Positions 5,265-50,208 of a stretch of DNA of 50,208 nucleotides are shown in pieces (the stretch's first letter is position 1; each line of letters opens with the position of its first letter). The translations under genes and the position numbers were made by a program. Source of the stretch: an uncultured Candidatus Saccharibacteria bacterium (lineage in GTDB: Bacteria > Patescibacteriota > Minisyncoccia > Phycocordibacterales > PALSA-1337); the NCBI GenBank assembly GCA_964365535.1, contig CAYIQG010000001.1, positions 1 to 50,208 on the forward strand, in the 5' to 3' direction. The notes under the pieces are model-generated. The model was given only the letters and a program-made list of their open reading frames with translations. It made no database searches and was not told where the DNA came from.

Positions 5265-5287
5265 TAACAGGTATTTTAAACTCTTTT

Positions 5288-29785: not shown

Positions 29786-31600
29786 CTATTGTCCCGCGTC
29801 CTCCAATTGTTTCTTTGCTTCCTTGATCGCCACAATCTGCTGGGGATTCGTGGTAATAATCTGGTCTTCAGTGTAAGAGCTGACGATTTTTATGGCGACA
29901 TGCTTCAAGCCGACGAAAAATATGCCTTCGCCGACATCAGATTCGAGTAGTAAATATTTTTCTTCATCCGTCAAATTGAAAGTCTTTTGAACATAATCAA
30001 TAACGCTCGGCGACTGTTTCAGCAGAATCTGTATAGAAGAGTTCGTTACAATCGGCATGCCGTATGGAGACTTCAAGAAATCATCAACATCCTGGGTAAT
30101 AGTCGCGAGCCCGAGGAAATATTTTCGTCCTCTTTTCGCCAAACTGAACAGGAACGAGGCCGTATCTTCGCTTTTCATCATCCACCACGCTTCATCAATA
30201 ACTAGAAGGCGCTTTCTCAAATTCTTACGGATAGCATTCCAAATATAGTGAGTGATGAGATACATTGCCACCGGTTTGAGCTCATCTTCCATATCGCGGA
30301 GTGAAAAGACGACAAACTTCTTATTGATGTCAATGTTTGAAGGGCGATTGATGAAGCCGGACCATGTGCCCTTCGTGTATTTCGACAATCTTTCCACCAG
30401 AGAGTCCGCGCCTTCCATTCCAGCCAAGACAAGTTCAAAATCGGATAAAAGCGGCGGTTCAACATTGGCGAAGTTCGATTCGGCGGTAATATCTTTCAGG
30501 GCGTAAGTTTCCGTTATGGCTCGATCAATGATGGCGTCTTCTTCTTGAGACAAACCGCCTAACATTATTCGGAATAATCCAACGAGATTTATGATATTGG
30601 AACGAAGAACATCGGTGGCGCTTTCATCCTCGTGCGCTATCGGCAAATCGAAAGGATTCACATGGTGTTCTGAATTCAATGAAATATTGAAATATTTTCC
30701 TCCTGTCGCCTCGGCCATATACTCATATTCTTTTTCCGGGTCAATAACTATGACTTCCGTGTCGAACATCAGAGTGCGCAATATTTCCAGCTTGGTGCAA
30801 TAAGATTTTCCGGAACCGGCGACGGCGAAAGTGACGGAATTGTAATTTTCTAGAAGGAAACGGTCGAATAGGACTAGCGAAGAATTGTGCCTATTTATGC
30901 CGTACAGTATCCCCTTATCAGAAGTTAAGTCGAATGAAACGAATGGAAATAGGCTGGAAAGCGGCGATGAATTGAGTTTCGAATGAACGGCCAATTGGTC
31001 ATCCGCTATAGGCAAAACGCTCTTGAATCCTTGTTCTTGCTGGAATAGAGCTGGTTTGACATAGACCAGTTTTGATTCGAGAATAGATTTCACTTCTGAT
31101 TCAAGTTTGTCTAGTTCGCCTTCCGAATCGGCAAATAATGTAATATAGACGCCTACATCGAATAGTCTTTCTTGGGCTTGCATGAGTTGGTCGCGAAGAT
31201 TTTCTAAATCTTGATAAGCGGTATCGAGAGCCGGGTCGCGCACCAGCCCTTTTTCTTCTCTGCGAGAAATTTGGCTTTGTACTTCGGCGACTTTCTTTTG
31301 GAAATGGCGCAATATTTTCGCGGTATCGACTGGATGTATGAAAATCGAGACATTGAATACTTTGTCGAGGTTTATTATCGGCGCGAACCAGCTTTCTTGC
31401 AGGAATCTTGGATATGAAATCACGAATAATGTGCGACCGACCTTCTCCCCCAAATTCAATTCTTTCGGACTTATTTTGAGCGCCGAGGGAGCGATAATAT
31501 CTTTCAATTCCAAAACGCCGGCCTGGTATATTTCCTCGGGCATGATGGAAACGATTGGCGAAGGTTCCTTTTTCTTGAATAAATTGCTGAATATGTTCAT
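29786..31600 (-). CDS. VirB4/TrbE/CagE-like type IV secretion ATPase
   Basis: Walker A FAVAGSGKSY, Walker B LLVIDEAWWMM, GLATITQDVDDF. The ATG at 31600 overlaps the upstream stop (ATGA). The upstream extension to 31699 looks non-coding. Confidence 0.85.
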   Translation of the reverse strand: MNIFSNLFKKKEPSPIVSIMPEEIYQAGVLELKDIIAPSALKISPKELNLGEKVGRTLFVISYPRFLQESWFAPIINLDKVFNVSIFIHPVDTAKILRHFQKKVAEVQSQISRREEKGLVRDPALDTAYQDLENLRDQLMQAQERLFDVGVYITLFADSEGELDKLESEVKSILESKLVYVKPALFQQEQGFKSVLPIADDQLAVHSKLNSSPLSSLFPFVSFDLTSDKGILYGINRHNSSLVLFDRFLLENYNSVTFAVAGSGKSYCTKLEILRTLMFDTEVIVIDPEKEYEYMAEATGGKYFNISLNSEHHVNPFDLPIAHEDESATDVLRSNIINLVGLFRIMLGGLSQEEDAIIDRAITETYALKDITAESNFANVEPPLLSDFELVLAGMEGADSLVERLSKYTKGTWSGFINRPSNIDINKKFVVFSLRDMEDELKPVAMYLITHYIWNAIRKNLRKRLLVIDEAWWMMKSEDTASFLFSLAKRGRKYFLGLATITQDVDDFLKSPYGMPIVTNSSIQILLKQSPSVIDYVQKTFNLTDEEKYLLLESDVGEGIFFVGLKHVAIKIVSSYTEDQIITTNPQQIVAIKEAKKQLEDAGQ

Positions 31601-32235
31601 GTTATTTGTATCGGTTTCTCTGTCTCCCCAGGATTGAACAGCTTGTAGAATAATTCTACCACCTCCTCGGTTCCCAATTCCGCCGTGCGGACGCCACAAC
31701 GCACGAGTCCCTGCTCGACTACCGAGACCCGCTGTTCGAGTTGAGTCCTATATTCCTGGAATTGTTCATCCAAGGTAGGCGCTGGCGCGGCTCCTTTTCG
31801 TTTCGACAGGAATTTCGATATTGGGTTGTGGCTGGCGGTCATCATTGGCGGGTCGTAAGGGATGACGACGAAGAAGCTTTTTGTCATTATGTTCGTATTT
31901 TCCACGAAAGTTTTGACAAATTCTATATATTCACGCACTTGAATTTTCATCAGCTCGGTTATTTGTTCTTTGTAACGGCCTTCCAATAGGGCAATATATG
32001 GTCTAATATCTAACTTTTTTGATTGAATTACTATTTGTATCGAAAAATCCAATGAATTCAGGAAGTTTTGGAATTGCATCATAATAGCATTTTGTTCATC
32101 GGAAGATTTCAGGGCGAAATTTAAAGATGATGCCAAGACTACTGACCTCATACCGCCATTGCGCAAGACTATCACTCCATCGCGGATTTCTTGCACGGGC
32201 ACGAATTCTTGAGTTGTTTGGGATTTTGTCGCCAT
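31597..32235 (-). CDS. Stand-alone protein resembling the N-terminal (non-ATPase) domain of Gram-positive VirB4 homologs
   Basis: QEFVPVQEIRDGVIVLRNGGMRSVVLASSLNFALKSSDEQNAIMMQFQNFLNSLDFSIQIVIQS matches my memory of VirB4 N-domain starts in Firmicutes conjugation systems. It is translationally coupled to the ATPase. Confidence 0.5.
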   Translation of the reverse strand: MATKSQTTQEFVPVQEIRDGVIVLRNGGMRSVVLASSLNFALKSSDEQNAIMMQFQNFLNSLDFSIQIVIQSKKLDIRPYIALLEGRYKEQITELMKIQVREYIEFVKTFVENTNIMTKSFFVVIPYDPPMMTASHNPISKFLSKRKGAAPAPTLDEQFQEYRTQLEQRVSVVEQGLVRCGVRTAELGTEEVVELFYKLFNPGETEKPIQIT

Positions 32236-32237
32236 TT

Positions 32238-32675
32238 TTATTTCTGGTTCTTGTTGGAATAAACACTCTCTTTAATATCCAAACTCCACGCCAAATCTTT
32301 GAGCTTGCTGTCGGAAATCTTCGGAACCATGAGCGAGGCGTAACTTTTCGCGTCTTTGATTGCTCCCTCTGCCGTTTGCGGTTTTATATTTTCTTTTTTC
32401 TGCCAAATGAAGAGCTTACTGCCTCTATAATAATTGAACGCTGATTCGGCGATATTGACTAATGGAAAGTGATTATAGACTTTATAGAAAGCCAAAGCCA
32501 CGGAAATTGCTATTATTATCAGTATTGGTATGAATGACCAAAAGAGACTGCCGAGCATGACATAGACGACAAATGATAATCCTCCCCCGCCGGCCAGATA
32601 TATGAATTGCTTTAAGGTAAGGGGTCCGAAAATTTTATCTTCGACTTCAATGAATTGAGGTACTTGGTATCGCAT
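32238..32675 (-). CDS. PrgI-family (VirB3-like) membrane protein
   Basis: MRYQVPQFIEVEDKIFGPLTLKQFIYLAGGG followed by two TM helices, the characteristic PrgI-family opening. Confidence 0.65.
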   Translation of the reverse strand: MRYQVPQFIEVEDKIFGPLTLKQFIYLAGGGGLSFVVYVMLGSLFWSFIPILIIIAISVALAFYKVYNHFPLVNIAESAFNYYRGSKLFIWQKKENIKPQTAEGAIKDAKSYASLMVPKISDSKLKDLAWSLDIKESVYSNKNQK

Positions 32676-37246: not shown

Positions 37247-38089
37247 TCAAGAACTAAATATGATTTCATTTGAAGTGAAATAATTCTGAATGTTATCCAA
37301 TGCCGTCATAATATTTTGCAGGCCCGAGACATAAATGCCGACAGCCGCCAAACCTTGAGTAGGGTCTTTTTCAACATTTCGGAGGGATTTCGCGTTGTAT
37401 AGGGTGATACTTATACCATTCAATAAGTCTAGATGATACTGTGACGCGGATTTCGGCACTGGCAATACCCGTAATTTATTGACAATAGATTCATATTTGG
37501 CAATGATTGGGTCAATTTGCTCAAGTATGCTCATATCTCCTTGGTCGAATGCGTTATTGGCAATAATTGCCGCGTCTTCGACTGGAAGGTTTTTCATTAT
37601 TCCCATAAGATTTTTCCCGTATTCGGCAATTTGATTTTGATTGGAGTCAAGTACGATATAGATATCTTTCGCGAAATATATTGTCGGATTCGTCACATCA
37701 GCTATACGCCCAACAAATCTATTATTTATGGCGTTTATCACATCAGGATTTTCTTCAAGTCCAGCTTGTTTAGCCATCATATATTGGGCGAAATAGTCTC
37801 TGCTTATTTGGTCAGTGAGTGTAAGCGGCGTATCTATGATATTTTCTGTTTTCTTCGCCGATAATTTAACGCTGTTGGTCGCGGAGCCGAAGAATTGCTT
37901 TTGCCAATCCGTTGAAGCGGTTGTAGTTGAAACACGGTCTGTATTTATTGAAGTTGTTACGGCTATTCTCCCTTCATCTTGCATTGGCGCGACTTTTTGC
38001 CTGTATGAATACCATACCATCGTCCCGACGACTACAACACACGCGATGAAAATAATTACCGTCTGTTTACGCGGGTATAATTTAGCCAT
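37247..38089 (-). CDS. Single-pass membrane protein (locus gene 1)
   Basis: N-terminal anchor VIIFIACVVVVGTMVWYSY and a helical extracytoplasmic domain. No family recognised. Confidence 0.65.
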   Translation of the reverse strand: MAKLYPRKQTVIIFIACVVVVGTMVWYSYRQKVAPMQDEGRIAVTTSINTDRVSTTTASTDWQKQFFGSATNSVKLSAKKTENIIDTPLTLTDQISRDYFAQYMMAKQAGLEENPDVINAINNRFVGRIADVTNPTIYFAKDIYIVLDSNQNQIAEYGKNLMGIMKNLPVEDAAIIANNAFDQGDMSILEQIDPIIAKYESIVNKLRVLPVPKSASQYHLDLLNGISITLYNAKSLRNVEKDPTQGLAAVGIYVSGLQNIMTALDNIQNYFTSNEIIFSS

Positions 38090-38121
38090 GCTATACGCAA
38101 TTATAGCGCAAGTGAAGGTTA

Positions 38122-38970
38122 TTACGCGCTAATTTTTGTGGATAACGCGAACCATTGTTCTAGAGTCAAATCTTCAGCTCGAATCTTTTCATTAAATGAT
38201 AAAATGTTCCACACTTCTTTGATCTTATTCAAATCAGCAATACTCTCAAGGTTTCTAATCAAGAATTTTCGTTTATGCGCGAAACCAGCGCGAACAATAC
38301 GGAAGAAGTGGCTTATTTCAAGCTTATTCTCTATGAATTTGTCATTTGATATGCCGTTTATTGCCAAAATAGCCGAATCAACGGTTGGCGGTGGTACGAA
38401 AGCTCCTCTTGAAACCTTGGCGATAATGCGCGGATTACTGAAAGCTTTCACGGAAATTGACAATATACTTTCTTTTTTATCCTTAGCCACAATGCGTTCC
38501 GCCACTTCCTTTTGAGTTAATAACACCATCCTATTTGGTCTGGGTTCATTCTCAAGAAATTTCTCAAGAATAGCGCCGGTAATATAGTAAGGAATATTGG
38601 CGACAACCGCATAGCTTTTTTGAGCGTTATTTCTGCTGGATTTGTCATTCCCGCGATCCGCCAGATGGCGGAGGGAATCCAGCGTGTGCACATTAAATTT
38701 TAATATGTCTTCATACACTAGAGTTAATCTTCCATTCAAGATTTCCTCGGCAAACTTTTCTTTTAATAAATCATATGAACGAATATCTTTCTCCACGGCT
38801 ACTACTCTTGCTTCTGCTTTCAATAACTCTTGTGTGAGTATTCCAGTTCCAGGTCCAATCTCCAAGATATTTTCACCTTTTTGAATATTCGCGGCTGCAA
38901 TAATATCATTCAAAACTTTTTTTGAATGAAGAAAATATTGCCCCAATGACTTTTTCGGTCTGATTTGCAT
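38122..38970 (-). CDS. rsmA: 16S rRNA (adenine1518/1519-N6)-dimethyltransferase RsmA/KsgA
   Basis: LGQYFL, SAM-binding ILEIGPGTGILT, and the ANIPYYITGAIL motif. It carries a 13-aa insertion. Confidence 0.9.
   Translation of the reverse strand: MQIRPKKSLGQYFLHSKKVLNDIIAAANIQKGENILEIGPGTGILTQELLKAEARVVAVEKDIRSYDLLKEKFAEEILNGRLTLVYEDILKFNVHTLDSLRHLADRGNDKSSRNNAQKSYAVVANIPYYITGAILEKFLENEPRPNRMVLLTQKEVAERIVAKDKKESILSISVKAFSNPRIIAKVSRGAFVPPPTVDSAILAINGISNDKFIENKLEISHFFRIVRAGFAHKRKFLIRNLESIADLNKIKEVWNILSFNEKIRAEDLTLEQWFALSTKISA
38644..38682. repeat. 39-nt GC-rich palindromic element in frame within rsmA
   Basis: gtcattcccgcgatccgccagatggcggagggaatccag encodes exactly LDSLRHLADRGND. It shares its termini (gtcattcccgcga ... 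gggaatcYag) with the intergenic hairpin at 49229-49255. Confidence 0.75.
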
Positions 38971-38988
38971 ATTTTCTCGTACATATTA

Positions 38989-40962
38989 TCAGAAATCAAT
39001 AAAAATCGCTTTCGCTCCCGTTGGTTTTTCTGGTGGAACATCATCAATAAGTTCCTTTTCAATATCGTCAATAAATTCAGAAGGCGCATTCACTCTCTGT
39101 GCCCCATAAACAGTGCGAATAATCGTATAACTCAAATAAACTTTTTTCTTGGCTCTAGTTAACGCCACATAAAACAATCTTCTTTCCTCTTCTTCCTCAC
39201 TTTGACTCACTTTCCCTTCATCTAGGTGCTTGAATGGGAAAAGGTCCTGTTCCATTCCGGCAATACAAATAATTTCAAATTCAAGACCTTTCGAGGCGTG
39301 AACCGTCATTAGTTTTACCGCGTTTTCTTTTTTCTCCAGCTCATCTTGGTCAGTCGCGAGCGCAGCATTCTCGAGGAGAGCCATAATCCCCTCTTCGGGA
39401 CTCATCTGGTCGTATTGCGTAGCCACGGAAACGAGTTCTCGAATGTTGAGCAGGCGTTCCTCGTCATCACTATCACCCCGCCTTCCCGTGGACGAATGGT
39501 CAAACATCTTTTCGATACCGCTTTCTTGAATGACGAATTTAAGAGTTTCGGACGGTTTCTTTTCAAAGATTTCTTTTTTGATATTATCGAGCAAATTCCA
39601 GAAGCCGGTGATCTTCTCTCTAGTGGCTTCCGGTATCAGATTTTCTTGATTCGCGAATATTCTCGCGACAGTCACTTTGCCAATACCTCTTGTTGGGACA
39701 TTGATAATTCTCGCTATATCGCCCAGACTTTCTTTGTTTAACGCCGCGCGGATATATGAAAGTACATCTTTCACTTCTTTCCTTTCGAAAAATCTGGTTC
39801 CCAAAAGTTGATATGGCACATTTTTCTTGATAAAAGCTTCTTCCAACGCTCTCGATTGGAAATTTGCCCTATACAAAACGGCAATCTCTTGCGGTGAAAT
39901 CCCTTCGGCTATCGCGTTTCGACAAATATCGGCCACGGCTCTAGCCTCGTCCATTTCAGTGTATGAAGCAATAATAGATATTTTCTCGCCATCTTCATTA
40001 TCGGTATAAAGTACCTTTTTTTTGCGCAAAATATTCTTTTCGATAACCATATTTGCCGCGGCGAGAATAGTCTTCGTTGACCTATAGTTTTTCTCCAAAA
40101 CAATAACCGCAGTTTCCGGATAATCTTTCTCGAAATTCAAGATATTTTCGATTGTCGCGCCGCGCCAGCTATAGATATTCTGGTCGGCATCTCCGACAAC
40201 GCATATGTTTCTATGGGATTCAGCCAAATACTTGGCTATTCTGTATTGAACGCGATTCGTGTCTTGATATTCGTCAATGTGAATATATTTCCATATAGAA
40301 CTATAGTGCTTTCGAATCTCAAGATTATTTTCCAATAACTGGCAGGTTCTCAAAAGTAAATCATCAAAGTCCAAGGCTTTTTCTTTGGATAATATCGCAT
40401 CATATTTTTCCCAAATACCGACAATCATTTCTTCCATAAAGTCTTTTGCTGATTCTCCGTATTGAATATGATTCATGCCGCTACCTTTCGCCATGGAAAT
40501 CTTATTGAGAATAACATTCGGTTCAAATTTCTTCGGGTCAATTGAAGATTGCAACATAGCTTCTTTGACTGCTCGTTTCGAATCGGCGCGGTCGTAAATA
40601 GTGAAATGGCGAGTTAGTCCGAGTAAATGAGCATTTTCTCTAATAATGTGAACCCCTAACGCATGGAAAGTACTGACGAATGGCGTCTCGGCATTCCGGC
40701 CAGCGGACCAATTGGCCGAAACGGGTGTATTCAGTTCTTTACTGTCAGCCAAAAGGGCAAAAACGCGCTCGCGCATCTCTTTTGCCGCCTTGTTCGTGAA
40801 AGTTATGGCGAGAATGTCGCGCGGAGCGACCCCATTTTTAATAAGATTCAAAATTCGATGCGTTATTACTCTAGTCTTGCCTGAACCAGCTCCGGCGATT
40901 ATGAGAACGGGACCATCAATATGTTCGACTGCTTTTGTTTGTTCGGGATTCAATCCATGCAT
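38989..40962 (-). CDS. pcrA: UvrD/PcrA/Rep-family ATP-dependent DNA helicase
   Basis: Motif I AGAGSGKTRVITHRI, motif II HIDEYQDTN, and TVHASKGLEF late in the protein. 657 aa. Confidence 0.9.
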   Translation of the reverse strand: MHGLNPEQTKAVEHIDGPVLIIAGAGSGKTRVITHRILNLIKNGVAPRDILAITFTNKAAKEMRERVFALLADSKELNTPVSANWSAGRNAETPFVSTFHALGVHIIRENAHLLGLTRHFTIYDRADSKRAVKEAMLQSSIDPKKFEPNVILNKISMAKGSGMNHIQYGESAKDFMEEMIVGIWEKYDAILSKEKALDFDDLLLRTCQLLENNLEIRKHYSSIWKYIHIDEYQDTNRVQYRIAKYLAESHRNICVVGDADQNIYSWRGATIENILNFEKDYPETAVIVLEKNYRSTKTILAAANMVIEKNILRKKKVLYTDNEDGEKISIIASYTEMDEARAVADICRNAIAEGISPQEIAVLYRANFQSRALEEAFIKKNVPYQLLGTRFFERKEVKDVLSYIRAALNKESLGDIARIINVPTRGIGKVTVARIFANQENLIPEATREKITGFWNLLDNIKKEIFEKKPSETLKFVIQESGIEKMFDHSSTGRRGDSDDEERLLNIRELVSVATQYDQMSPEEGIMALLENAALATDQDELEKKENAVKLMTVHASKGLEFEIICIAGMEQDLFPFKHLDEGKVSQSEEEEERRLFYVALTRAKKKVYLSYTIIRTVYGAQRVNAPSEFIDDIEKELIDDVPPEKPTGAKAIFIDF

Positions 40963-41205
40963 GGACTTATATTAACAGTTTACATGCCGTTAGCTAGTTT
41001 CTAGGACATATTGATTGACAACAAAGCAAATAGTACTACTGTGTATAAACTAGATTGACAATAATATACCACTTGCTACCCTAGACAGGATAACCTAAAA
41101 CTTTGCTCCAATATACGGCTTAATAAAGCCATTTATTATTTAGGGAATCATTCCAGAAAAGCAGGAAGAAAGTTACGGAGGATTTGCAGAAATGAAAAAT
41201 ATATT

Positions 41206-42255
41206 ATGAAATCATTATCTCACGACAAAAGTAAATATTCGACCATTACCAAACGCGCCTTTTCTTGGCCTCTTACCTTTGTAATCGCTTTAGCCGCGCT
41301 TGTGCTCTATTCCGGGACCGCTTATGCCGGTCTCTTTTCTTTTGTCGGGTCGCTATTCGGAGGTTCTTCCGCCGTCGCCCAAACAACGACCATTACTCCG
41401 GACCAAAATCTTCAGACAATCGCCTTGCTTCAGGCGCCAGCGAATATAAATCCCAATCAAAATGTTATCGCCGATGCCGTACCTATTAGCAACAATGAAA
41501 CACTCGTGGCTGACTTGGCAGCAGCCAATATTATTGATGAAAGTAATTATAATACGCAAATCAGCACCTATGTTGTTCGGGGAGGCGATACTATTTCAGG
41601 CGTTTCAAGAATGTTCAATGTTTCCGTGAATACTGTTTTGTGGGCGAATAATCTTAATGGTAAATCAATTCTTAAAGTTGGACAGACTCTTACTATTTTG
41701 CCCGTGACCGGTATTTCTTATACTATAAAGAAAGGTGATACTATCAAGAGTATTGCCAATAAATACAACGCCGATGTGACCGATATATTGAATTATAACG
41801 ATTTAATTTTATCGATGCCGCTTTCCGTCGGTAATTCGATAATTATCCCTGATGTGGAATTGTCATCCTCGGAGATTACGCGATTAACCGTACTTTCTAC
41901 GAATCGCGTTATTAGCGGCTTCATAAGGCCAATTGTCGGCGGGCGTAAGACTCAAGGGATACACGGCAATAATGGCGTTGACCTTGCCGCTCCGATTGGG
42001 ACTCCCATTGTCGCTTCGGCCAGTGGCACGGTGATTATCAGCCGTGCCGGCGGATGGAATGGCGGTTATGGCGGTTATGTCGTCATTTCCCATCCGAATG
42101 GCACGCAGACTCTATACGCGCATAATTCCAAGAATCTCGTAACTGCCGGCGAAAAAGTCATGCAAGGAGAAACTATCGCGCTTGTGGGTTCAACGGGCAA
42201 TTCAACCGGCCCCCATATTCATTTTGAAATTCGCGGCGCGGTCAATCCGTTTTAA
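41206..42255 (+). CDS. Secreted LysM-domain M23 metallopeptidase
   Basis: N-terminal TM/signal, two LysM repeats (YVVRGGDTISGVSRMF..., YTIKKGDTIKSIANKY...), and M23 motifs HGNNGVDLAAP and GSTGNSTGPHIHFEIR. Confidence 0.9.
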   Translation: MKSLSHDKSKYSTITKRAFSWPLTFVIALAALVLYSGTAYAGLFSFVGSLFGGSSAVAQTTTITPDQNLQTIALLQAPANINPNQNVIADAVPISNNETLVADLAAANIIDESNYNTQISTYVVRGGDTISGVSRMFNVSVNTVLWANNLNGKSILKVGQTLTILPVTGISYTIKKGDTIKSIANKYNADVTDILNYNDLILSMPLSVGNSIIIPDVELSSSEITRLTVLSTNRVISGFIRPIVGGRKTQGIHGNNGVDLAAPIGTPIVASASGTVIISRAGGWNGGYGGYVVISHPNGTQTLYAHNSKNLVTAGEKVMQGETIALVGSTGNSTGPHIHFEIRGAVNPF

Positions 42256-42256
42256 G

Positions 42257-43780
42257 CTATTCTTTGGTCTTCCGCCGATATTGCAGCGCCTCCAGAATAT
42301 ATTCTTTTTCTATAATGTCCGAACCCGCAAGGTCAGCGATTGTTTGCGCCACTTTCATGATTCTATGGAATGATCTGCCGGATAATTCCAGTTTTTCCGC
42401 GGAAAGCAAAAGAATATTGCGGGCTTCGTCGGTTAGCGTGACGCATTTCTCGAGGTCTTCCGCGCCCATTTCACTGTTATAGTGTTTTGTTATATGGTAT
42501 TTTCCAAATCTCGCGGTTTGCCGCAATCGCGCGGATACGATTCTTCGGCGGATGGTCTCCGAAGACTCGCCGCTCGAAGTTTTGGCGGCCAATTTCTTAT
42601 AATCAACTTTATTAACATCAACCCAAATGTCTATGCGGTCAATGATTGGCCCGGAAATTTTTCGCTGATAATTTTTAAATACTATTTCCGGACAAACGCA
42701 TCCATTATTTTTGCCTTTTCCGCAAGGACAAGGATTTGTCGAGGCTATCAAGATACATTGCGCGGGGAAAGTAATAACGCCGCGAGCGCGCGAAATCGTT
42801 ATGACGCGGTCTTCGAGAGGTTGGCGCAGGGCTTCGATGACATCTCTGTCAAATTCAGGGAATTCATCCATAAAGAGCACTCCCCTATGAGCCAATGTTA
42901 TTTCTCCAGGCCGGGGGAATGCCCCGCCGCCGACAATCGAAGGATATGACGCGGTATGGTGCGGAGAGCGGAATGGCGGATAAACGATGAGACCCTCTTT
43001 CAATGTTCGAGCCGCCGAATGAATGCCGGTAACCTCGATTGATTGCTCATAAGTTAATGGCGGCAAAATCGAGCAAAAACTATGCGCCAACATTGTCTTT
43101 CCCGTTCCCGGCGGACCGCTCAAGAGAATATTATGCGCGCCGCCGCCGGCTATCTCGAGTCCTCTTTTCGCGGTTTCATTGCCACGAATTATATTCATAT
43201 CCGTGAAGTTTGGCGGTTCGAAATTCAGGTTCTCGATTCTCTGAATAGGTTTCATTTCAATTTCACCCGATAAGTGTTTTATTGTTTGCGCTAGAGATGA
43301 GACCGCGTAGGCGGTTATCCCTTGAGCAAGCGATGCCTCGCGGATATTATCTATTGGCACGAATGCTTCCATAAAACCATGCTCTCTTGCTTGGCAAAGA
43401 ATAGGCAATAATCCGCTTACCTTACTCACATTCCCTTCAAGGGACAATTCTCCCAAAAATATTTTCTTTTCCGAATTGAAATGAATATCCTCCGCCGCTT
43501 TCAAATATGTGACGGCCATTGCCAAGTCGAAAGACGGTCCCTCTTTGCGAACATCGGCCGGCGCTAAAGATATAATAACTTTTTGGTTTTTCTGTTTGGG
43601 CGATTGATACCCGGTATTCTTCACGGCCGCGGAAACGCGGTCTTTGGCTTCTTCTACCGCCCTATCGCCGAGACCGACAATAGAGAAAGCATTCAGGCCA
43701 TTGGAAATATCAACTTCGACCGTGACGGTTTCGGATTTAAGCCCAATAAGTTGCGCGCTGTATGATTTTGCCAGTCCCAC
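42257..43780 (-). CDS. comM: YifB/ComM-family Mg-chelatase-like AAA+ ATPase
   Basis: Lon-like N-domain, Walker A LLSGPPGTGKTM, Walker B VLFMDEFPEF, a Cys cluster STNPCPCGKGKNNGCVCP, and a C-terminal ChlI-like tail. Confidence 0.9.
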   Translation of the reverse strand: MGLAKSYSAQLIGLKSETVTVEVDISNGLNAFSIVGLGDRAVEEAKDRVSAAVKNTGYQSPKQKNQKVIISLAPADVRKEGPSFDLAMAVTYLKAAEDIHFNSEKKIFLGELSLEGNVSKVSGLLPILCQAREHGFMEAFVPIDNIREASLAQGITAYAVSSLAQTIKHLSGEIEMKPIQRIENLNFEPPNFTDMNIIRGNETAKRGLEIAGGGAHNILLSGPPGTGKTMLAHSFCSILPPLTYEQSIEVTGIHSAARTLKEGLIVYPPFRSPHHTASYPSIVGGGAFPRPGEITLAHRGVLFMDEFPEFDRDVIEALRQPLEDRVITISRARGVITFPAQCILIASTNPCPCGKGKNNGCVCPEIVFKNYQRKISGPIIDRIDIWVDVNKVDYKKLAAKTSSGESSETIRRRIVSARLRQTARFGKYHITKHYNSEMGAEDLEKCVTLTDEARNILLLSAEKLELSGRSFHRIMKVAQTIADLAGSDIIEKEYILEALQYRRKTKE

Positions 43781-43901
43781 GCGCTTATCATAGCAATTGA
43801 CTTATGAAATTCCGATAAAGAAAGTATGAAAAAACGATAAAAAAAGTCTCAAAAAAGAATAAAAAAACAATGAAGAAGTTATGAATTTTTTCCGTGCGGA
43901 A

Positions 43902-44267
43902 TTACTTATGCGTATGTTTGATCGAAATTCTGGAACTAGGATTGACTTCCAGCCGCTCGCGCTCTATTGGCTCGCCGCATTTTTCGCAGATGCCATATTT
44001 ATCAGTATCTATCTTTGCCAGAGCGTTTGTGATTTCACCGAGTTGTTTTTCGAGTTGCTCGGCGATACCGGAATTCTCTTCGAACTCTTCCATCTTGTCC
44101 GCCGTCTCGTTTTCATCAGCCGGATCCACCTCTATTTTGTTGCCAGTCACTTCCCAACCGGACGCGCTTCTTGGATTTCTGGACCCTATGCTTGATAACT
44201 CTTCTTCAATCGCGGCTTTTTCCGCGAACAATTTATTCTTGAAATATTCCGTGTCTTTTTTATTCAT
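43902..44267 (-). CDS. DksA/TraR-family protein with degenerate zinc finger
   Basis: Coiled-coil N-terminus and a C-terminal CEKCGEPIERERLEVNPS. The second CxxC pair is absent. Confidence 0.7.
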   Translation of the reverse strand: MNKKDTEYFKNKLFAEKAAIEEELSSIGSRNPRSASGWEVTGNKIEVDPADENETADKMEEFEENSGIAEQLEKQLGEITNALAKIDTDKYGICEKCGEPIERERLEVNPSSRISIKHTHK

Positions 44268-44276
44268 GGATTCATG

Positions 44277-45320
44277 TTAGCGCATAAAAGCTTGTTGTTC
44301 AAGCCGCGATATGATTTCCGCCAAAGTCGCCTCTTTCGATGTGATAACCAGCTTGGTATTGTCAATGAATGAATACAAGAAAAGCACATTACCCGTATCG
44401 GTTCGAAATTCACGCGCGTCTCTGTTTTTTATTATACCATCGGTAAAATGTCCCGATAATGTGAAGTATTTTTGCGATGTTGATGTTGCATTTCCGATAT
44501 ATTGTTTCAAATCATCCGCCATTACATTTTCCCACGCGAGCATTCCGGCAAAAGCGTTTTGGAAAAAATTGTGAGTGGCGACAATGAAAATATCTTTATT
44601 ACCGCTTACATCCGAATATTCGCCTAACATCCAAGATGCCGTGAGCGACCTTACGAGTATGTCTGGCACGTCTATGCCCATAATATTTACCATATCTGTA
44701 CCGATAACACGGACTGATTGCTCATTATTCTTTCTGGTAAATATTATTTCTTTTATCGTGTTTGGTTGTTGTGGTTTTCTCATTTCGGCTTGAATATTAG
44801 AGATAATTTGCGATGGTATCAAGCCGTCGATTGGGATGAAAACCGCGAAATCGGAGGGAATAAGCGATTTATTCGCTGGATTTGTTCGCGTAATGGTTGG
44901 TAGCGGCGCTAGCGCGCTTTGGCTATAGAGATAATATGCCCCCGTTACTCCGCCGCCAATTAAGACTATGCTCATAATAGCCAAAATAATTTTTTTGTTT
45001 CTATGAACTTTTTGCTCGATATTGGCTGTTTTGCCGCTATTAGCGGCATTGTCTTTTTCTTGTTTAACACTTTCCGCTATCGCTATTGAAGCGGCGGAAG
45101 TCCTCTTATGCGACATGAATTCAGCCACATCGCCTTCATATGTCCGCAATGCCTTTTTTGAAAATTTTTCGGCGTCTGTTAATGGTTTGGCAACCTTATT
45201 GCCGTTTTCACTAATATTATTGACTGGTTTTGGTTGGCCATTGTTACCGCTTGTATTCGGTTGAATCGTATTTTGTTGCGGTCCAAGAGTCTTTTGTAGC
45301 GGAGTAGTATTTTCATCCAT
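44277..45320 (-). CDS. Single-pass membrane protein, hypothetical (347 aa)
   Basis: Disordered N-terminus, TM IILAIMSIVLIGGGVTGAYYLY, and a folded extracytoplasmic domain. No family recognised. Confidence 0.65.
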   Translation of the reverse strand: MDENTTPLQKTLGPQQNTIQPNTSGNNGQPKPVNNISENGNKVAKPLTDAEKFSKKALRTYEGDVAEFMSHKRTSAASIAIAESVKQEKDNAANSGKTANIEQKVHRNKKIILAIMSIVLIGGGVTGAYYLYSQSALAPLPTITRTNPANKSLIPSDFAVFIPIDGLIPSQIISNIQAEMRKPQQPNTIKEIIFTRKNNEQSVRVIGTDMVNIMGIDVPDILVRSLTASWMLGEYSDVSGNKDIFIVATHNFFQNAFAGMLAWENVMADDLKQYIGNATSTSQKYFTLSGHFTDGIIKNRDAREFRTDTGNVLFLYSFIDNTKLVITSKEATLAEIISRLEQQAFMR

Positions 45321-45365
45321 TGCCTTATTATAGCTGGAAACAAAAGATAAGACTAGTTCTTTTGG

Positions 45366-47540
45366 CTAGAATCTCTTTCTAAATTCCGTTCTTGGTTTTG
45401 GCTTCTCCTCTTTCTTCGTGAAGAATTCCGGATTCGCGCCTTTGATTGAAAGATTTATTCTTCCCTTATCGTCAACTTCTTTAACTATGACTGGCACTTT
45501 ATCCCCTTCTGTTATATATGTTTCGACATTTTCAACTCGGAACGGCGCTATCTCCGAGACATGTACCAGTCCTTCGGCATTCGGTCCTATTTTCACGAAT
45601 GCGCCGAAATCCATGAGGCGTGTTACTTCCCCTTGGAATTTTTCACCCGGCAGATATTCTCGAGTCATGTTATAGATTATCTCTTTAGCTTTTTCGGCGC
45701 TGCCGTCTTTGCCCGTGATGAACACGGAACCATCGTCTTCCATTGTTATATCTTCCACATGCGTTATATCGCGAATTTCGTTTATTGTTTTGCCGCCAGT
45801 GCCGATAACGAGTCCGATTTGTTCCGGCTTTATTTTCATGACTATTATTTCCGGCGCGTTCGGTGAAATCTTATTTCTAGGCGAGGAAATTTCTTTCTCT
45901 ATCACATCGAGGATTTGGAAACGGGCTTTTTTCGCCGCTTCGAACGCTTCGGCGAATATTGGAAGCGGTATTCCGGAAACTTTCACATCCATTTGTACCG
46001 CCGTGATTCCATTCCTCGTGCCGGCGACTTTGAAATCCATATCGCCATGATGGTCTTCGGGACCTTGAATGTCTGTCAAGATTTTATATTCTTTTTCGTT
46101 TTTCATCATTAAACCAGAGGCAATCCCCGCGACAGGCGCTTTGATTGGAACACCGCCATCCATTAGGGCTAGCGTCGAACCGCAAATTGAACCCATGGAA
46201 GTTGAGCCATTGGACGCGAATGCTTCGGAAACTAGGCGGATTGTATATGGGAATTTGTCCTTCGCTGGAATAACTGGAAGTAACGCTTTTTCAGCGAGCG
46301 CGCCGTGCCCGATCATTCTCCGATTTGTTCCGCCCATCCTGCCTGTTTCGCCAGTCGAAAATGGCGGGAAATTGTAATGATGCATAAAACGCTTATTCTC
46401 TTGAGCGACAACGCCGTCTATGAGAAGAGCGTCTCCCGGCGAGCCGAGCGTCAGCGCCGACATAATATGCGTGCCTCCGCGGAAGAATATTCCGGAACCG
46501 TGAAGAATAGGAGAAATGCCCCCAGCCTTGGCGAATAATGGCCTTATTTCATTCATTTTCCTGCCATCTGGGCGCCTATTATTATCTATTGCCTCATTAT
46601 GCAAAGCGTTATTGACCGCTTCCTCGAAAATTTCTTGCGCCATCGCCATATTTCCTTCAGGCATTCTTTCCTTGAATAGTTCTATCCAAATCTCATTTAT
46701 TTCAGCGAGCTTTTTCTTTCCTGGTTCATTGGCAAACACATATTTCAAGAGTTTTGGCGCTATTTCATCGTCGAATAATTCTTTTGTTCCCGGCGTTGAC
46801 TCCGGTAATACTACCGCAACCTTTTTCTTGCCAATTTCCTTTATTATTTTCTCCTGCCACTTTTGTATTTTCTCTATCTCTTCTGAAGCTTTCATAAGTC
46901 CTTCCGTTACAATCTCCTCACTTGCTTCTTTACTGGCGACCTCTATCATATTTATCATGCCATCTTTGCCGCAAGCGACCATATCTAAGATGACGCCTGC
47001 CTCTTCGCGCGCCTTATAGTTTGGATTTACGAGCCAGTCCCCATTCTTGTTCTTCGAGCTTTGCTCTTCAGAACCTGAACGGCCCATGCGCACCGCCGAC
47101 ACCGGTCCATTCCATGGAATATCGGAAACGCCCAGCGCGAGAGATGCCGCGATGACCGATACTACATCCGGGTCATCTTGGTCTATTGAAAGGGTTGTAA
47201 TTACCACTTGTACTTCATTGCGTATTCTCTGATTGAATAACGGTCTCACTGTCCGGTCAACGATGCGCCCGGAAAGTATTGCTTCAGTCGAGGGCCTTCC
47301 TTCCCTCCTCATGAATCTTGAGCCGAGAATTTTCCCGGTGGCGTAGAATCTTTCCTCGTATTCCACTGTTAATGGAAAATAATCGCTTTCCTCTTTTAAC
47401 TTGCCCATAACTGCTGTTGCCAACACCACGGTATTGCCATAGCGCAACATTACCGCGCCATTCGTTTGGTCCGCTAAGTCGTTGAATTCGGCGAGCAATG
47501 TTTTGCCGCCGACTTCAAGCGTATATTCTTTTTTCTTCAT
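45366..47540 (-). CDS. pnp: Polyribonucleotide nucleotidyltransferase (PNPase)
   Basis: Two RNase PH-like domains, KH (GLVIGTGGKTINEI) and S1 (GEKFQGEVTRLMDFGAFVKI) domains. 724 aa. Confidence 0.95.
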   Translation of the reverse strand: MKKKEYTLEVGGKTLLAEFNDLADQTNGAVMLRYGNTVVLATAVMGKLKEESDYFPLTVEYEERFYATGKILGSRFMRREGRPSTEAILSGRIVDRTVRPLFNQRIRNEVQVVITTLSIDQDDPDVVSVIAASLALGVSDIPWNGPVSAVRMGRSGSEEQSSKNKNGDWLVNPNYKAREEAGVILDMVACGKDGMINMIEVASKEASEEIVTEGLMKASEEIEKIQKWQEKIIKEIGKKKVAVVLPESTPGTKELFDDEIAPKLLKYVFANEPGKKKLAEINEIWIELFKERMPEGNMAMAQEIFEEAVNNALHNEAIDNNRRPDGRKMNEIRPLFAKAGGISPILHGSGIFFRGGTHIMSALTLGSPGDALLIDGVVAQENKRFMHHYNFPPFSTGETGRMGGTNRRMIGHGALAEKALLPVIPAKDKFPYTIRLVSEAFASNGSTSMGSICGSTLALMDGGVPIKAPVAGIASGLMMKNEKEYKILTDIQGPEDHHGDMDFKVAGTRNGITAVQMDVKVSGIPLPIFAEAFEAAKKARFQILDVIEKEISSPRNKISPNAPEIIVMKIKPEQIGLVIGTGGKTINEIRDITHVEDITMEDDGSVFITGKDGSAEKAKEIIYNMTREYLPGEKFQGEVTRLMDFGAFVKIGPNAEGLVHVSEIAPFRVENVETYITEGDKVPVIVKEVDDKGRINLSIKGANPEFFTKKEEKPKPRTEFRKRF

Positions 47541-47545
47541 CTTTT

Positions 47546-47630
47546 TGACTCACCCCCAGATTACAGATTGCAAGGCAATATATTAACGAAAAATTTGCTT
47601 GCGGATAAACCTGTGTATCTAGGGGTCAGT
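47546..47630 (-). promoter_or_regulatory. Long imperfect hairpin in the pnp 5' leader that includes the Shine-Dalgarno sequence
   Basis: On the minus strand, RC(47597-47630) pairs with RC(47546-47576). Several G.U pairs are valid only on the minus (mRNA) strand. GGGGGUGA lies 9 nt before the AUG, in the 3' arm. Confidence 0.5.
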
Positions 47631-47697
47631 TATTACTATTTTAATAATGCGCTCCAAACACCTCAAACGATGTCACTGTAACATGACCATATGCGCT

Positions 47698-47725
47698 TTG
47701 ACAAATATTTTATCGGGTGTATGGT
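47698..47725 (+). promoter_or_regulatory. Sigma70-type promoter TTGACA-N16-TATGGT for the 47751 gene
   Basis: TTGACA at 47698-47703, TATGGT at 47720-47725, AGGAGG at 47737-47742, ATG at 47751. Confidence 0.5.
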
Positions 47726-47750
47726 TCTTATTAGAAAGGAGGCGTTAATT

Positions 47751-48104
47751 ATGTTGGTATTAACCCTTTATGGGGTCCCTGAAGGACCGCCAGAAGCTAG
47801 GGCAAGTTTTGACGCTTTGAAACATACTCTGATTGAGATGATCACAAGTTTCAAGGAATTGGGTCTCAATGTCGATGACGTGGCAGTACACTATCCTCAA
47901 AACGAAAATCCAGGAAATGTCCTGAAGTGCATAGTCATGTGTCTCAGAGAGTCTCCGGCAATACCTGCCCTGAGTCAAGACCAGATAGTCAAAGAGCTCT
48001 GTGAGAAAATCAAGAGTACTTTGACAGTCTTTGTGAAAAGAAATCACGTGCTGTTGAGGCGGTGTGGCGAAATCAATGTCCGTGTAATCCTTCCGGAGAA
48101 ATGA
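47751..48104 (+). CDS. Hypothetical 117-aa protein (possible tandem beta-alpha-beta fold)
   Basis: A strong AGGAGG lies 8 nt upstream of the ATG at 47751. It is the only + strand gene between pnp and rpsO. No family recognised. Confidence 0.6.
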   Translation: MLVLTLYGVPEGPPEARASFDALKHTLIEMITSFKELGLNVDDVAVHYPQNENPGNVLKCIVMCLRESPAIPALSQDQIVKELCEKIKSTLTVFVKRNHVLLRRCGEINVRVILPEK

Positions 48105-48177
48105 AATCCGGTACAACTAAGCACTACATATGATTACCACGCTTCTTTCCCTCGGGTGTTTTGTTTCCACTATACAT

Positions 48178-48226
48178 TAACCGCGTTCTCTGTCATCAGG
48201 TTCGCGGTTACTTTTACTGTGTTTTT
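48178..48226 (+). terminator. Hairpin plus T-rich tail after the 47751..48104 gene
   Basis: taaccgcg (48178-48185) pairs with cgcggtta (48203-48210) and is followed by cttttactgtgttttt. The loop is long at 17 nt. Confidence 0.4.
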
Positions 48227-48238
48227 ATAGTTACTTAT

Positions 48239-48640
48239 TTAACTTAACTTCATTTTTCTTAATTCCCCCCTCAACTTCCCGTAATTCGGAATATTTTGCC
48301 CTACCAATGCCCAAAACTCTTTTGAATGATTAAACTCTTTGAGATGGCACAATTCATGCACTATAAGATAATCGGCGAGACGCAATGGAAGGTGTACGAT
48401 TCGATAATTAAAATTAAGGTTTCCCCTCTTGGAACAACTACCCCAGCGGGTACGCTGATTGCGGATGGCGATTTTGCGTACAGAAATTCCATAAATGGTA
48501 CGCCAATACTGGACGCGTTCACAAACGATGGCGCGTGCAAACTCCTTATATTTGAGAAAATCACGACGATTGCTACTTTTTCGGCGTCTTCGCGTATGGT
48601 GTGTCCTTCTTCTGCGGAATATGATACGGAATAAGTTCAC
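48239..48640 (-). CDS. YgjP-like (DUF45) M48-superfamily metallopeptidase, short form
   Basis: WGSCSKRGNLNFNYRIVHLP and the HELCHLKEFNHSKEFW zinc motif. Confidence 0.75.
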   Translation of the reverse strand: MNLFRIIFRRRRTHHTRRRRKSSNRRDFLKYKEFARAIVCERVQYWRTIYGISVRKIAIRNQRTRWGSCSKRGNLNFNYRIVHLPLRLADYLIVHELCHLKEFNHSKEFWALVGQNIPNYGKLRGELRKMKLS

Positions 48641-48672
48641 CGTTACATAATAGCGTATTTATTTGCTCTCCC

Positions 48673-49191
48673 CTATTTCCTTCCCGACCTCAATAAATAT
48701 TTGCTTGGATTTTCATCCAAATCCATGAAATTGTCAGCCGCTTCAATGAGTTTTGCCGATGTTGATTTGCCGAACGATACAACCTCTACTTGGCAACCTT
48801 GATTCATTTGCAAATACTCAACGAGCGGCACGAAGTCGCCGTCACCCGTAATGAGTATTACCGAATCTAATTTCGGCGAAAGTTTGACCGCGTCTATCGC
48901 AAGTCCCACATCCCAGTCCGCTTTCTTGGCGCCAGAACTGAATACTTGTAAATCTTTGACCTTTGTTTCAATTCCTACTTTTGTTAAGGCGTCAAAGAAG
49001 GCATTTTCTTCGCCAGTTTCCGTGGCGATGACATAGGCGACCGCTCGGACGAGCTTGCGGTCGTCGAGAGCGTCTTTCACTATTTGACCGAAATTGACTT
49101 TCGAATGATATAGATTCTTGCCGCTATGATACAGATTTTGCGCGTCAATATAAATGCCGACGCGCTGCTCTTTATGTTTGATTATTGCCAT
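48673..49191 (-). CDS. NYN-domain (LabA/DUF88-like) protein
   Basis: RVGIYIDAQNLYHS, LVRAVAY and ILITGDGDFVPLVEYLQ are typical of NYN/LabA-like nucleases. Confidence 0.75.
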   Translation of the reverse strand: MAIIKHKEQRVGIYIDAQNLYHSGKNLYHSKVNFGQIVKDALDDRKLVRAVAYVIATETGEENAFFDALTKVGIETKVKDLQVFSSGAKKADWDVGLAIDAVKLSPKLDSVILITGDGDFVPLVEYLQMNQGCQVEVVSFGKSTSAKLIEAADNFMDLDENPSKYLLRSGRK

Positions 49192-49228
49192 GAAAATTGT
49201 TGTTAACGAACTTTATTAAATGTTTTTT

Positions 49229-49255
49229 GTCATTCCCGCGAAAGCGGGAATCTAG
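49229..49255. repeat. GC-rich hairpin gtcATTCCCGC-gaaa-GCGGGAATctag downstream of rpsO
   Basis: 8-bp stem with a GAAA loop. It shares the same termini as the in-frame rsmA element. No U-tract follows on either strand. Confidence 0.7.
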
Positions 49256-49268
49256 GACATAACAAAGA

Positions 49269-49535
49269 TTATTTCTTCAAATCCAACTTCTTCACAATAC
49301 TCGAATATCTCCTCGGATGATTCTTTTTCAAATAATTCATATGGGTTTGCCTATCTGCCACCATTCCCAGAAGACCACGGCGCGAATGGTTATCTTTCTT
49401 ATGTTTCTTCAAATGAGAAGTCAATTCCTCGATTCTTTTGGAAAGTAACGCGACTTGAACTTCCGGAGAGCCGGTGTCTTTGTCGTTAACGGCTGTTTCC
49501 TTGATAATTTTTGTCTTTTGTCTGGTTGTAAGCAT
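49269..49535 (-). CDS. rpsO: 30S ribosomal protein S15
   Basis: 88 aa with TGSPEVQVALLSKRIEELTSHLKKHKKDNHSRRGLL. Confidence 0.95.
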   Translation of the reverse strand: MLTTRQKTKIIKETAVNDKDTGSPEVQVALLSKRIEELTSHLKKHKKDNHSRRGLLGMVADRQTHMNYLKKNHPRRYSSIVKKLDLKK

Positions 49536-49610
49536 GATTTAACACAGTAGCATGAATAGATATCCGGCGCAAGAGATGTTTTTCGAACTTCCTATTGCTA
49601 CAATGAAGGT

Positions 49611-50208
49611 ATGTCGCATAATCTCAAAACTTTGAAACAGCAATTTCTGGAATATATTGAGATAGAAAAGGGGCGTTCTCTGAAAACGGTTGAAAATTAT
49701 GACCACTATCTGACTAGATTTCTAGGCTTTTTGAAAAATAATAATCTATCAGCGATTACCCCAGACTCCATTCGCGAGTTTCGACTATGGCTCAATCGCC
49801 AACCTTCTGGGAGAAATAGTGGCACAAACGGTTCCAGTGGCACTCTGAAAAAGAAAACACAGAATTATTATCTCATTTCCCTGCGCGCTTTTCTCAAATA
49901 TTTGGCTAGGCGAAATATCAATACTCTTTCACCGGAACATATAGAATTAGCTAAGACCGGCGAAAGGCATATCGATTTGATCACTTCGGAAGAACTAAAA
50001 AGACTACTCGAAGCGCCGAAAGGCGATGATTTGAAAGCTTTACGCGACAAATCTATTCTTGAATTGCTCTTTTCTACCGGTTTGCGCGTCTCTGAGCTTT
50101 GTTCCCTACCCCGCGATATTGACCTTCGTAGCGATGAATTATCAGTGAGGGGAAAAGGCGACAAAGTCCGCGTCGTTTTTATTTCCAACGAAGCTAAGCA
50201 CGCATTAA
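49611..50208 (+). CDS. XerC/XerD-like tyrosine recombinase, 3'-truncated by the window end
   Basis: Hand translation from the ATG at 49611 gives MSHNLKTLKQQFLEYIEIEKGRSLKTVENYDHYL..., and the frame stays open to the window end through ...ILELLFSTGLRVSELCSL...LSVRGKGDKVRVVFIS. The gene is absent from the ORF track because it has no stop codon. TGCTACAAT lies 6 nt upstream. Confidence 0.8.
   Translation, partial: MSHNLKTLKQQFLEYIEIEKGRSLKTVENYDHYLTRFLGFLKNNNLSAITPDSIREFRLWLNRQPSGRNSGTNGSSGTLKKKTQNYYLISLRAFLKYLARRNINTLSPEHIELAKTGERHIDLITSEELKRLLEAPKGDDLKALRDKSILELLFSTGLRVSELCSLPRDIDLRSDELSVRGKGDKVRVVFISNEAKHAL

Follow-up and report, generated by a model that had tools for sequence, protein, structure and literature searches.

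The rsmA gene of a Patescibacterium from the Hainich groundwater well H43 contains a palindromic DNA repeat that is translated as part of the protein. The gene lies on contig CAYIQG010000001.1, of which we analyzed positions 1 to 50,208 (the window), and an intergenic twin of the repeat is found farther along the same sequence. By sequence identity, the rsmA segment is a copy of the NTS/SRM hairpin family, with the arrangement GTC-ATTCCCGCG-loop-CGCGGGAAT-CYRG. The explanation that we consider very probable is that such a copy was inserted in frame and had its apex enlarged later, most likely with neutral effect on RsmA.

Results

The Repeat in rsmA and Its Intergenic Twin

NTS is a directional 28-mer, CGTCATTCCCGCGMAVGCGGGAATCYRG, that contains the Neisseria dRS3 core ATTCCC-N8-GGGAAT, and about half of the dRS3 copies are part of this longer unit (Chenal 2025, PMC11893778). 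SsnA, a 94-aa single-domain GIY-YIG nuclease, binds NTS as single-stranded DNA and cuts it a few bases upstream, the cleavage being confined to the top strand; the GTC preceding the palindrome is important for cleavage and the C following it for binding, while the identity of the loop is dispensable (PMC11893778). According to the same study, NTS-like hairpins called SRM flank ssn genes in many phyla, NTS/SRM repeats cluster between genes in many bacteria, and 2% of the NTS copies of N. meningitidis are intragenic. We found no mention of Patescibacteria in its main text. The features of the window that bear on the repeat are given below; related contigs and proteins are referred to by L and P numbers, respectively.

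38122..38970, minus strand: rsmA/ksgA (16S rRNA adenine dimethyltransferase), the host gene, an open reading frame of 282 aa
38644..38682, plus strand: 39-nt hairpin, GTCATTCCCGCGA / TCCGCCAGATGGCGGA / GGGAATCCAG, from sequence, fold, and pattern counts
38641..38685, plus strand: whole inserted unit, an NTS-type hairpin with its conserved flanks (TTT-GTCATT...GAAT-CCAG-CGT), from alignment with L001 and the empty L002 and L003
38657..38672, unstranded: nested perfect palindrome TCCGCC-AGAT-GGCGGA, unique in the window, from comparison with L001 and the twin
38636..38641, plus strand: CTGGAT, pairing with ATCCAG at 38677-38682, an extension of the outer stem peculiar to the rsmA copy, from the minimum-free-energy structures of both strands
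38620..38640, minus strand: seven codons SSRNNAQ adjoining the insert, outside the repeat, from loop alignments
49228..49255, plus strand: the twin, a canonical NTS/SRM hairpin, TGTCATTCCCGCGAAAGCGGGAATCTAG, which fits the SRM pattern and, with one mismatch, NTS

On the plus strand, positions 38644-38682 read GTCATTCCCGCGATCCGCCAGATGGCGGAGGGAATCCAG; on the minus strand, the hairpin makes up 13 complete codons of rsmA, in frame, encoding LDSLRHLADRGND (residues 97-109). Folded as single-stranded DNA it has two tiers, an outer ATTCC/GGAAT stem, a 4-nt bulge, and an inner TCCGCC/GGCGGA stem, with an energy of -14.8 kcal/mol (z = -2.8). Sequence, reading frame, and fold thus agree with the initial annotation of this DNA, which had described a two-stem hairpin of 13 in-frame codons. 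The allele is base-for-base identical in four independent H43 assemblies with coverages of 22-69x, and the element is therefore real sequence and no assembly artifact.

The same annotation had proposed the intergenic relative, and this was borne out. The twin, GTCATTCCCGCGAAAGCGGGAATCTAG at 49229-49255, forms an 8-bp stem free of mismatches, with an energy of -11.0 kcal/mol as single-stranded DNA (z = -4.3), and it shares the first 13 and last 9-10 bases of the rsmA copy. Exact matches to the 13-mer GTCATTCCCGCGA occur in the window only at the rsmA hairpin and the twin, and the pattern ATTCCCGC-N(0-30)-GGGAAT likewise has only these two sites, compared with 0.01 expected from shuffles. Written as tGTCATTCCCGCGAAAGCGGGAATCTAG, the twin differs from the 28-mer consensus of NTS solely at base 1 (T for C); it fits the published SRM pattern, for which 0.16 matches are expected in shuffles of the window, and its positions 49232-49251, ATTCCCGCGAAAGCGGGAAT, match the dRS3 core. 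Both copies have the directional flanks tGTC-ATTCCC...GGGAAT-C. The rsmA copy retains the GTC, the ATTCCC/GGGAAT arms, and a trailing CCAG; its arms are 20 nt apart, and it thus departs from the strict dRS3 core. The twin stands between rpsO (49269-49535, minus strand) and a NYN-domain gene (48673-49191, minus strand), 14 nt beyond the stop codon of the former and 38 nt ahead of the start of the latter. A scan of 48600-49700 gave no terminator-like site, the rpsO strand after the hairpin reading GACAAAAAAC, and an Rfam scan of 38000-50208 returned sub-threshold chance matches only and placed the twin in no Rfam family.

The Insert Lies in a Predicted Surface Loop of RsmA

The host protein is a regular RsmA/KsgA. 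It matched PF00398 homologs with E-values down to 1e-138 and KsgA structures at E = 4e-35, and its 120 best homologs are Patescibacteria/Paceibacteria RsmA proteins. We found in it the RrnaAD domain, the GxGxG motif that binds S-adenosylmethionine, the catalytic N-[IL]-P-Y, and the two-domain KsgA fold; the columns invariant in an alignment of 26 RsmA sequences, including EIGPGTG and NIPYYITGAI, are, by construction, all present. The PDB name "High level Kasugamycin resistance protein" of a matched structure goes back to the resistance that results from loss of KsgA. The gene is conserved universally, yet it is not essential in E. coli, and the initial annotation, which was right to place the repeat both between and inside genes, overstated the case in calling the host gene essential.

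The AlphaFold model of the window RsmA has a mean pLDDT of 89 and a pTM of 0.85 and superposes on KsgA structures with TM scores of 0.72-0.81. In blocks of ten residues, the pLDDT drops from 84 (91-100) to 62-63 (101-110 and 111-120), and the insert sits between the predicted strands 82-86 and 121-125. It is thus, as far as the model goes, a low-confidence surface loop of an otherwise KsgA-like predicted fold, in line with the surface location that had been anticipated. B. subtilis KsgA, aligned with HMMER, is 12 residues shorter in this region.

Empty and Filled Alleles

The stretch from the strand ending in DIL to the catalytic NIPYY motif, where the insert had been placed from the outset, is hypervariable, measuring 9-91 residues among 191 RsmA orthologs. 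The closest empty orthologs, P0002-P0006, 71-85% identical to the window RsmA by two measures, lack the segment: all are 266 aa long, 16 aa shorter than the window protein, and read, for example, DILEFDCVTVGLENNKYALVANIPYY, compared with HTLDSLRHLADRGNDK across the insert of the window. The closest filled ortholog, P0001 (278 aa), reads DILKFDAHTLDSRFRGNDKRYGNDMQKSYAIIANIPYY, and its DNA, L001, about 82% identical, has a perfect NTS, ACACTGGATTCCCGCTTTCGCGGGAATGACAAA, at the codons of the window insert. On the coding strand, L001 has ACA CTG GAT TCC CGC TTT CGC GGG AAT GAC AAA. Without these 33 nt its loop aligns with the empty ones (RYGNDMQKS vs. TVGLENNK), and the original insertion can therefore be read as an 11-codon NTS unit plus a one-codon length difference.

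The window copy corresponds to the L001 copy with four apical bases (AAGC on the NTS strand) swapped for the 16-nt palindrome TCCGCCAGATGGCGGA. The swap adds a net 12 nt or four codons, which together with the 11 codons of the NTS unit and one further codon makes up the 16 extra residues in total. The comparison with orthologs thus corrected the initial annotation in two respects: the excess over empty orthologs is 16 codons and not 13, and the unit inserted was not the 39-mer but, judging from L001, a canonical NTS of ~33 nt that was later enlarged by the nested palindrome. On the coding strand of the window, the inserted unit with its flanks, which are conserved in a consensus of 15 copies, spans 15 codons, TLDSLRHLADRGNDK, and the top strand of NTS is the template strand of rsmA.

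The adjoining SSRNNAQ is homologous to the loop of empty orthologs and compares with VGLENNK in P0002 and RYGNDMQ in P0001. We considered whether the second GND of P0001, in RYGNDMQ, is a partial duplication of the repeat and rejected this, as the aligned empty orthologs make it homologous to the ancestral loop VGLENNK. In P0045, a loop of the same length, LDSFLHTSQT, is NTS-like only in its left 9 nt, and its origin from a decayed NTS is ambiguous. The same loop of RsmA holds larger inserts in P0011 (~45 aa) and L008 (~60 aa), and near the C terminus of the P0100 RsmA the peptide VIPAKAGIQ is an NTS read in another frame.

The nested palindrome has relatives of its own. Hairpins of the form TCCGCC-N3/4-GGCGGA were found in five other loci of related contigs: three are in frame, in rsmA of L088 (6635, NPPAGGP) and L084 (10577) and in uvrD of L041 (4292), one in L019 (2649) directly follows rpsO and has, with its T run, a terminator-like look, and one is in L057 (7446). 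The TCCGCC arm occurred 6 times compared with a mean of 0.53, second only to the NTS arm among 384 6-mer arms with five G/C. The window element may be a composite of two hairpin types, or its apex may have grown in place.

Comparison with the empty contig L002 showed the window rsmA to be a mosaic. The two have no nucleotide mismatches over nt 367-476 and 643-849 of the gene and are 94% identical over nt 400-849; from nt 357 on, most 120-nt windows are 96-100% identical, with 86-87% over nt 477-657. Around the insert, at nt 177-357, the identity is 58-72%, and the window allele is nearer L001 there. A maximum chi-square test placed the breakpoint at nt 366, which is 39 nt beyond the hairpin, and none of 2000 permutations reached the observed value. 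The window and P0001 alleles co-occur in sample ERZ1292640. These sequence comparisons are suggestive of, and fit, an exchange of the filled segment by homologous recombination.

Recurrence in Other Lineages

At least four other lineages of Patescibacteria also have NTS-type hairpins in this RsmA loop. The loop peptide is MDSHLRGNDK in P0013/L005, LDSRIRGNDR in P0025/L006 and, independently, in L007, and LDSRLRGNDD in L008, a Paceibacterota metagenome-assembled genome; the fourth lineage, L009, is UBA5194. The P0025 allele comes from two unrelated samples. When the loop was masked and a neighbor-joining tree built from 191 RsmA sequences, the filled lineages came out scattered, with empty nearest relatives; in the masked alignment, the distant filled lineages P0013, P0025, L008, and L009 are 38-66% identical. 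The copies of L001 and L008 are perfect and those of L005 and L006 have one stem mismatch each, as fits decaying passengers. The L001, L006, and L008 copies fit the NTS/SRM patterns, and that of L001 also matches the dRS3 core. Every copy in the loop is oriented alike, the top strand of NTS being the template strand, and all code-11 copies share the frame LDSRxRGND, which is weak evidence of targeting.

The L009 contig (DHWA01000050.1) has 24% G+C, and its own GIY-YIG gene (~4982-5270) has TGA codons where the YIG motif and VxGF have their conserved Gly; we infer from these two positions that L009 uses genetic code 25, with TGA for glycine. Its rsmA (near 300-1240) contains an AT-rich variant of the hairpin, GTCATTCCCTTGTAGAAGGGAATC, in two in-frame copies that read GRFPSTREG. 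They are read in the frame that holds TGA and is closed under the standard code, and give an intact RsmA of 313 aa. The GIY-YIG gene of this contig is flanked by a different hairpin subtype, GTCATTCCGGACTTGATCCGGAATC.

Further copies of the repeat, which the initial annotation had proposed to search for, were thus found both in the window and in related contigs. A set of 80 metagenome RsmA loci (~0.9 Mb), chosen without regard to the repeat, contained seven NTS copies outside rsmA, in L021, L029, and L048 only; they appear intergenic, those of L048 and L021 forming inverted pairs (the latter at the contig end) and that of L029 being single. In 1.0 Mb of related DNA, the NTS arm was the commonest perfect 7-bp hairpin.

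Repeats also occupy the surroundings of rsmA. The spacer between uvrD and rsmA measures 18 nt in the window (38971-38988) and holds different palindromic elements in relatives: inverted pairs of NTS hairpins in L001 (1658-1808) and L006 (9823-10000), a pair of ~30-nt inverted repeats in L094 (2615-2776), and, in L003 (9764-10000), 237 nt bounded by ~31-nt inverted repeats, GGAGTCAGTGGCGGGCGGTATATTCATTTTT. It looks like a landing pad for small repeats. Downstream of rsmA, the window has a cluster of PrgI, TraC-like, and TraG-type P-loop ATPase genes (29786-32675, minus strand) whose synteny is kept in L003, L006, and L095 and which agrees with the report of a type IV secretion system in Patescibacteria (PMC12102498). 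Between the PrgI and TraC-like genes of L003 and L004 (17498-17568) there is an inverted NTS pair with matching changes in both members (GTCATTTTCGCG...CGGGAAT); the two contigs encode the same RsmA protein, and the 3' flank of one NTS copy differs between them, TTAG vs. CCAG.

Ssn-Like Genes in Patescibacteria

We searched for the nuclease partner of the repeat, a cd10448-type single-domain GIY-YIG protein, with a consensus sequence as bait whose matches are real PF01541 proteins; it retrieved more than 8000 of them, some named by NCBI as Patescibacteria and Berkelbacteria. A hidden Markov model (HMM) built from 120 real family members was used on the window and all loci, and matched L009 only; regular-expression searches of the same sequences for GIY-YIG gave nothing credible. 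Ssn-like GIY-YIG genes with GTCAT hairpin flanks are present in the Patescibacteria contigs L090, L092, and L009, the gene in L090 being flanked by a canonical NTS (5370-5391), and the proteins of all three match PF01541 and resemble the Ssn family in sequence. On this sequence evidence, the NTS-ssn-NTS arrangement exists in Patescibacteria.

Ssn-like proteins in databases (P0140, P0144, P0156, P0163, P0185, P0220, and P0226) often start with MSFPRKRES or VIPAKAGI or end with GFPLSRE-stop, all of which are translated NTS; the gene calls run into the flanking repeats. In some Ssn-like proteins, the TGA of NTS appears to act as the stop codon.

Discussion

We propose that a unit of ~33 nt (11 codons, TLDSRFRGNDK) entered RsmA in the surface loop of variable length that links the DIL strand to the catalytic NIPYY motif, in a lineage that would have included, or exchanged DNA with, the P0001 population of the same groundwater. 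It would have persisted because the reading frame was kept, that frame has no stop codon, and the loop tolerates extra residues. In the window lineage, the apex would later have been replaced by a GC palindrome of 16 nt, adding four codons and giving the two-tier 39-nt hairpin and the peptide LDSLRHLADRGND, most likely as a neutral passenger of RsmA. An Ssn-type nuclease may have been involved in the window organism. The rsmA copy keeps the bases recognized by Ssn on the template strand and hence may, from its sequence, remain open to single-strand cutting or recombination.

Several observations weigh against this explanation. Neither the NTS nor the SRM pattern, as published, matches the rsmA copy, because its apex is 12 nt longer and its inner stem broken. 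On inspection by eye, neither the window nor L001 shows a target-site duplication or a direct repeat flanking the insert, and the sole inverted repeat at the rsmA insert is the hairpin itself, unlike in a miniature inverted-repeat transposable element (MITE), which has terminal inverted repeats and a target-site duplication and derives from an autonomous insertion sequence. NTS was found in rsmA at none of the 80 unselected metagenome loci, making the event uncommon, and the pattern used to retrieve L008 and L009 was orientation-specific, leaving three lineages free of that bias. No ssn or GIY-YIG gene was found in the 50-kb window when its six-frame translations were scanned with the family HMM and ten neighboring genes with Pfam. 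Finally, whether and how NTS repeats are mobile is left unresolved in PMC11893778. The first of these points, together with the presence of only two copies in 50 kb, could be taken to mean that the resemblance to the intergenic hairpin is due to chance or that the sequence is misassembled. We give this practically no credence and reject it, given the 0.01 matches expected, the perfect NTS at the same codons of the independent contig L001, the identity of four assemblies, and the recovery of the P0025 allele from two unrelated samples. A gain of function, in which the 16 residues or the mRNA hairpin were co-opted, for instance as a 30S contact, a translational pause, or an RNA-processing site, and kept by selection, is improbable. 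The allele is indeed fixed, being identical in four assemblies at up to 69x coverage, and its hairpin has been enlarged and not eroded; on the other hand, the peptides SRFRGND, SHLRGND, SRIRGND, and SLRHLADRGND vary only as the DNA palindrome dictates, close relatives presumably function without the insert, model confidence is low at the insert, and no RNA family or terminator signal was found.

Two further explanations concern how the loops were filled. The filled loop may have arisen once and then, through homologous recombination or natural transformation, spread among related populations, with the repeat marking or setting the recombination boundary; we regard this as a serious though lesser possibility. 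The mosaic rsmA, L002-like in its 3' part and divergent around the insert with a breakpoint at nt 366, agrees with such spread, as does the presence of the window and P0001 alleles in one sample; Saccharibacteria, the Patescibacteria tested, are reported as naturally competent (PMC10187176, a preprint of PMC10633639), and the window gene at 42257-43780, which has Pfam Mg-chelatase/ChlI domains only, can be read as ComM-like. NTS and Ssn influence how transforming DNA is integrated in Neisseria, where NTS-adjacent genes are unusually diverse (PMC11893778). However, L002 is a 1.1-kb short-read contig that could be chimeric, the uneven divergence partly reflects uneven constraint along rsmA, and a single origin would cover the window, P0001, and P0002 but not the distant P0013, P0025, L008, and L009, whose flanks are different. 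It is unlikely, in our judgment, that NTS hairpins were actively inserted into the rsmA loop with site and orientation specificity, for example by Ssn nicking and microhomology-primed copying. The single orientation of all loop copies and the single frame of all code-11 copies speak for this, as do the empty loops that resemble the 3' flank CYRGATT of NTS (CTAGATTC in P0045 DNA, TTGGATTGG in L002 DNA), the peptide TLD in the empty loop of P0003 (at the protein level), and the inverted NTS pairs upstream of rsmA in L001 and L006, from which the copies could have originated locally. Yet the three lineages free of orientation bias give roughly P = 0.04 for the shared frame, selection in a surface loop would favor the hydrophilic frame anyway, the distance from the hairpin to ANIPYY varies (6, 7, 9, and 14 codons), no duplication or nick signature is visible, and the 80 unselected loci are all unfilled. 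The wider conjecture that Ssn-type nicking inserts NTS/SRM site- and strand-specifically and repeatedly in the RsmA loop, the copies then bounding recombination between strains, seems to us more doubtful still.

The insertion and later enlargement of an NTS copy thus remains our preferred reading, and the repeat can be set beside known systems. It is like NTS/SRM in the sequence of the twin, the GTC upstream and C-Y-R-G downstream, the single-stranded DNA hairpin, the inverted pairs and intergenic clusters of related contigs, and the hairpin-flanked Ssn-like genes of other Patescibacteria. It differs in that the window copy is translated inside a conserved housekeeping gene, as PMC11893778 describes no in-frame coding copies, in its 16-nt apex palindrome, with which it fails the patterns, and in the lack of an ssn gene within 50 kb. 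Rickettsia palindromic elements (RPEs) are ~150 bp long and found in Rickettsia both between genes and in frame within them, at fold-compatible sites of unrelated housekeeping genes, and their copies deteriorate (PMC10969869). The rsmA repeat is palindromic, has intergenic as well as in-frame copies, and sits in a tolerated loop. This likeness, which the initial annotation had pointed out and which the twin and the copies in related contigs support, is one of behavior and not of family membership: the unit here is ~28-33 nt (39-45 nt in the rsmA copy) and from Patescibacteria, and the NTS/SRM family has a known protein partner, Ssn. REP sequences have a GTAG-type head. As in the REP/BIME-RAYT and MITE systems, the repeats are short intergenic palindromes, often in inverted pairs, for which spread is thought to involve a hairpin-recognizing single-strand nuclease or transposase; in contrast to them, the rsmA repeat has no GTAG-type head and no visible target-site duplication. 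A Pfam scan of ten neighboring genes found no transposase. The analogy of NTS with REP/RAYT is drawn in PMC11893778 itself.

The initial annotation was not aware of a description of such an element for this kind of organism, and this held in part. The repeat family, with its dRS3 core, is already known as NTS/SRM (PMC11893778), and in-frame palindromic insertions are known from Rickettsia and some MITEs (PMC10969869). In the literature that we searched, we found no translated in-frame copies in Patescibacteria, and on in-frame NTS copies or palindromic repeats in proteins of the Candidate Phyla Radiation nothing beyond PMC11893778 and the MITE review PMC10969869. New are the occurrence of the repeat in this phylum and its translation within a universal gene, along with its repeated presence in a single loop, the palindrome nested at the apex, and the frame used under code 25.

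The finding connects an odd 13-codon stretch of RsmA, a universal enzyme of ribosome biogenesis, with the repeats that have Ssn as their partner, a protein characterized only in 2025, and it shows that Patescibacteria contigs contain NTS-type hairpins and Ssn-like genes flanked by such hairpins. Like RPEs, NTS hairpins can become parts of proteins, including in a code-25 lineage that uses a frame otherwise closed by TGA. For annotation, it is a warning that LDSRxRGND, VIPAKAGIQ, and SFPRKRES in metagenomic proteins are translated repeats and not domains. The close filled and empty alleles, one pair of them from the same sample, define the insertion boundaries and could help to test the movement of NTS. 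If insertion is driven by Ssn, the pair of repeat and nuclease would lengthen protein loops and shuffle gene segments, and the filled and empty rsmA alleles of a single groundwater well would be a natural system for studying the multiplication of NTS, a question left open by PMC11893778.

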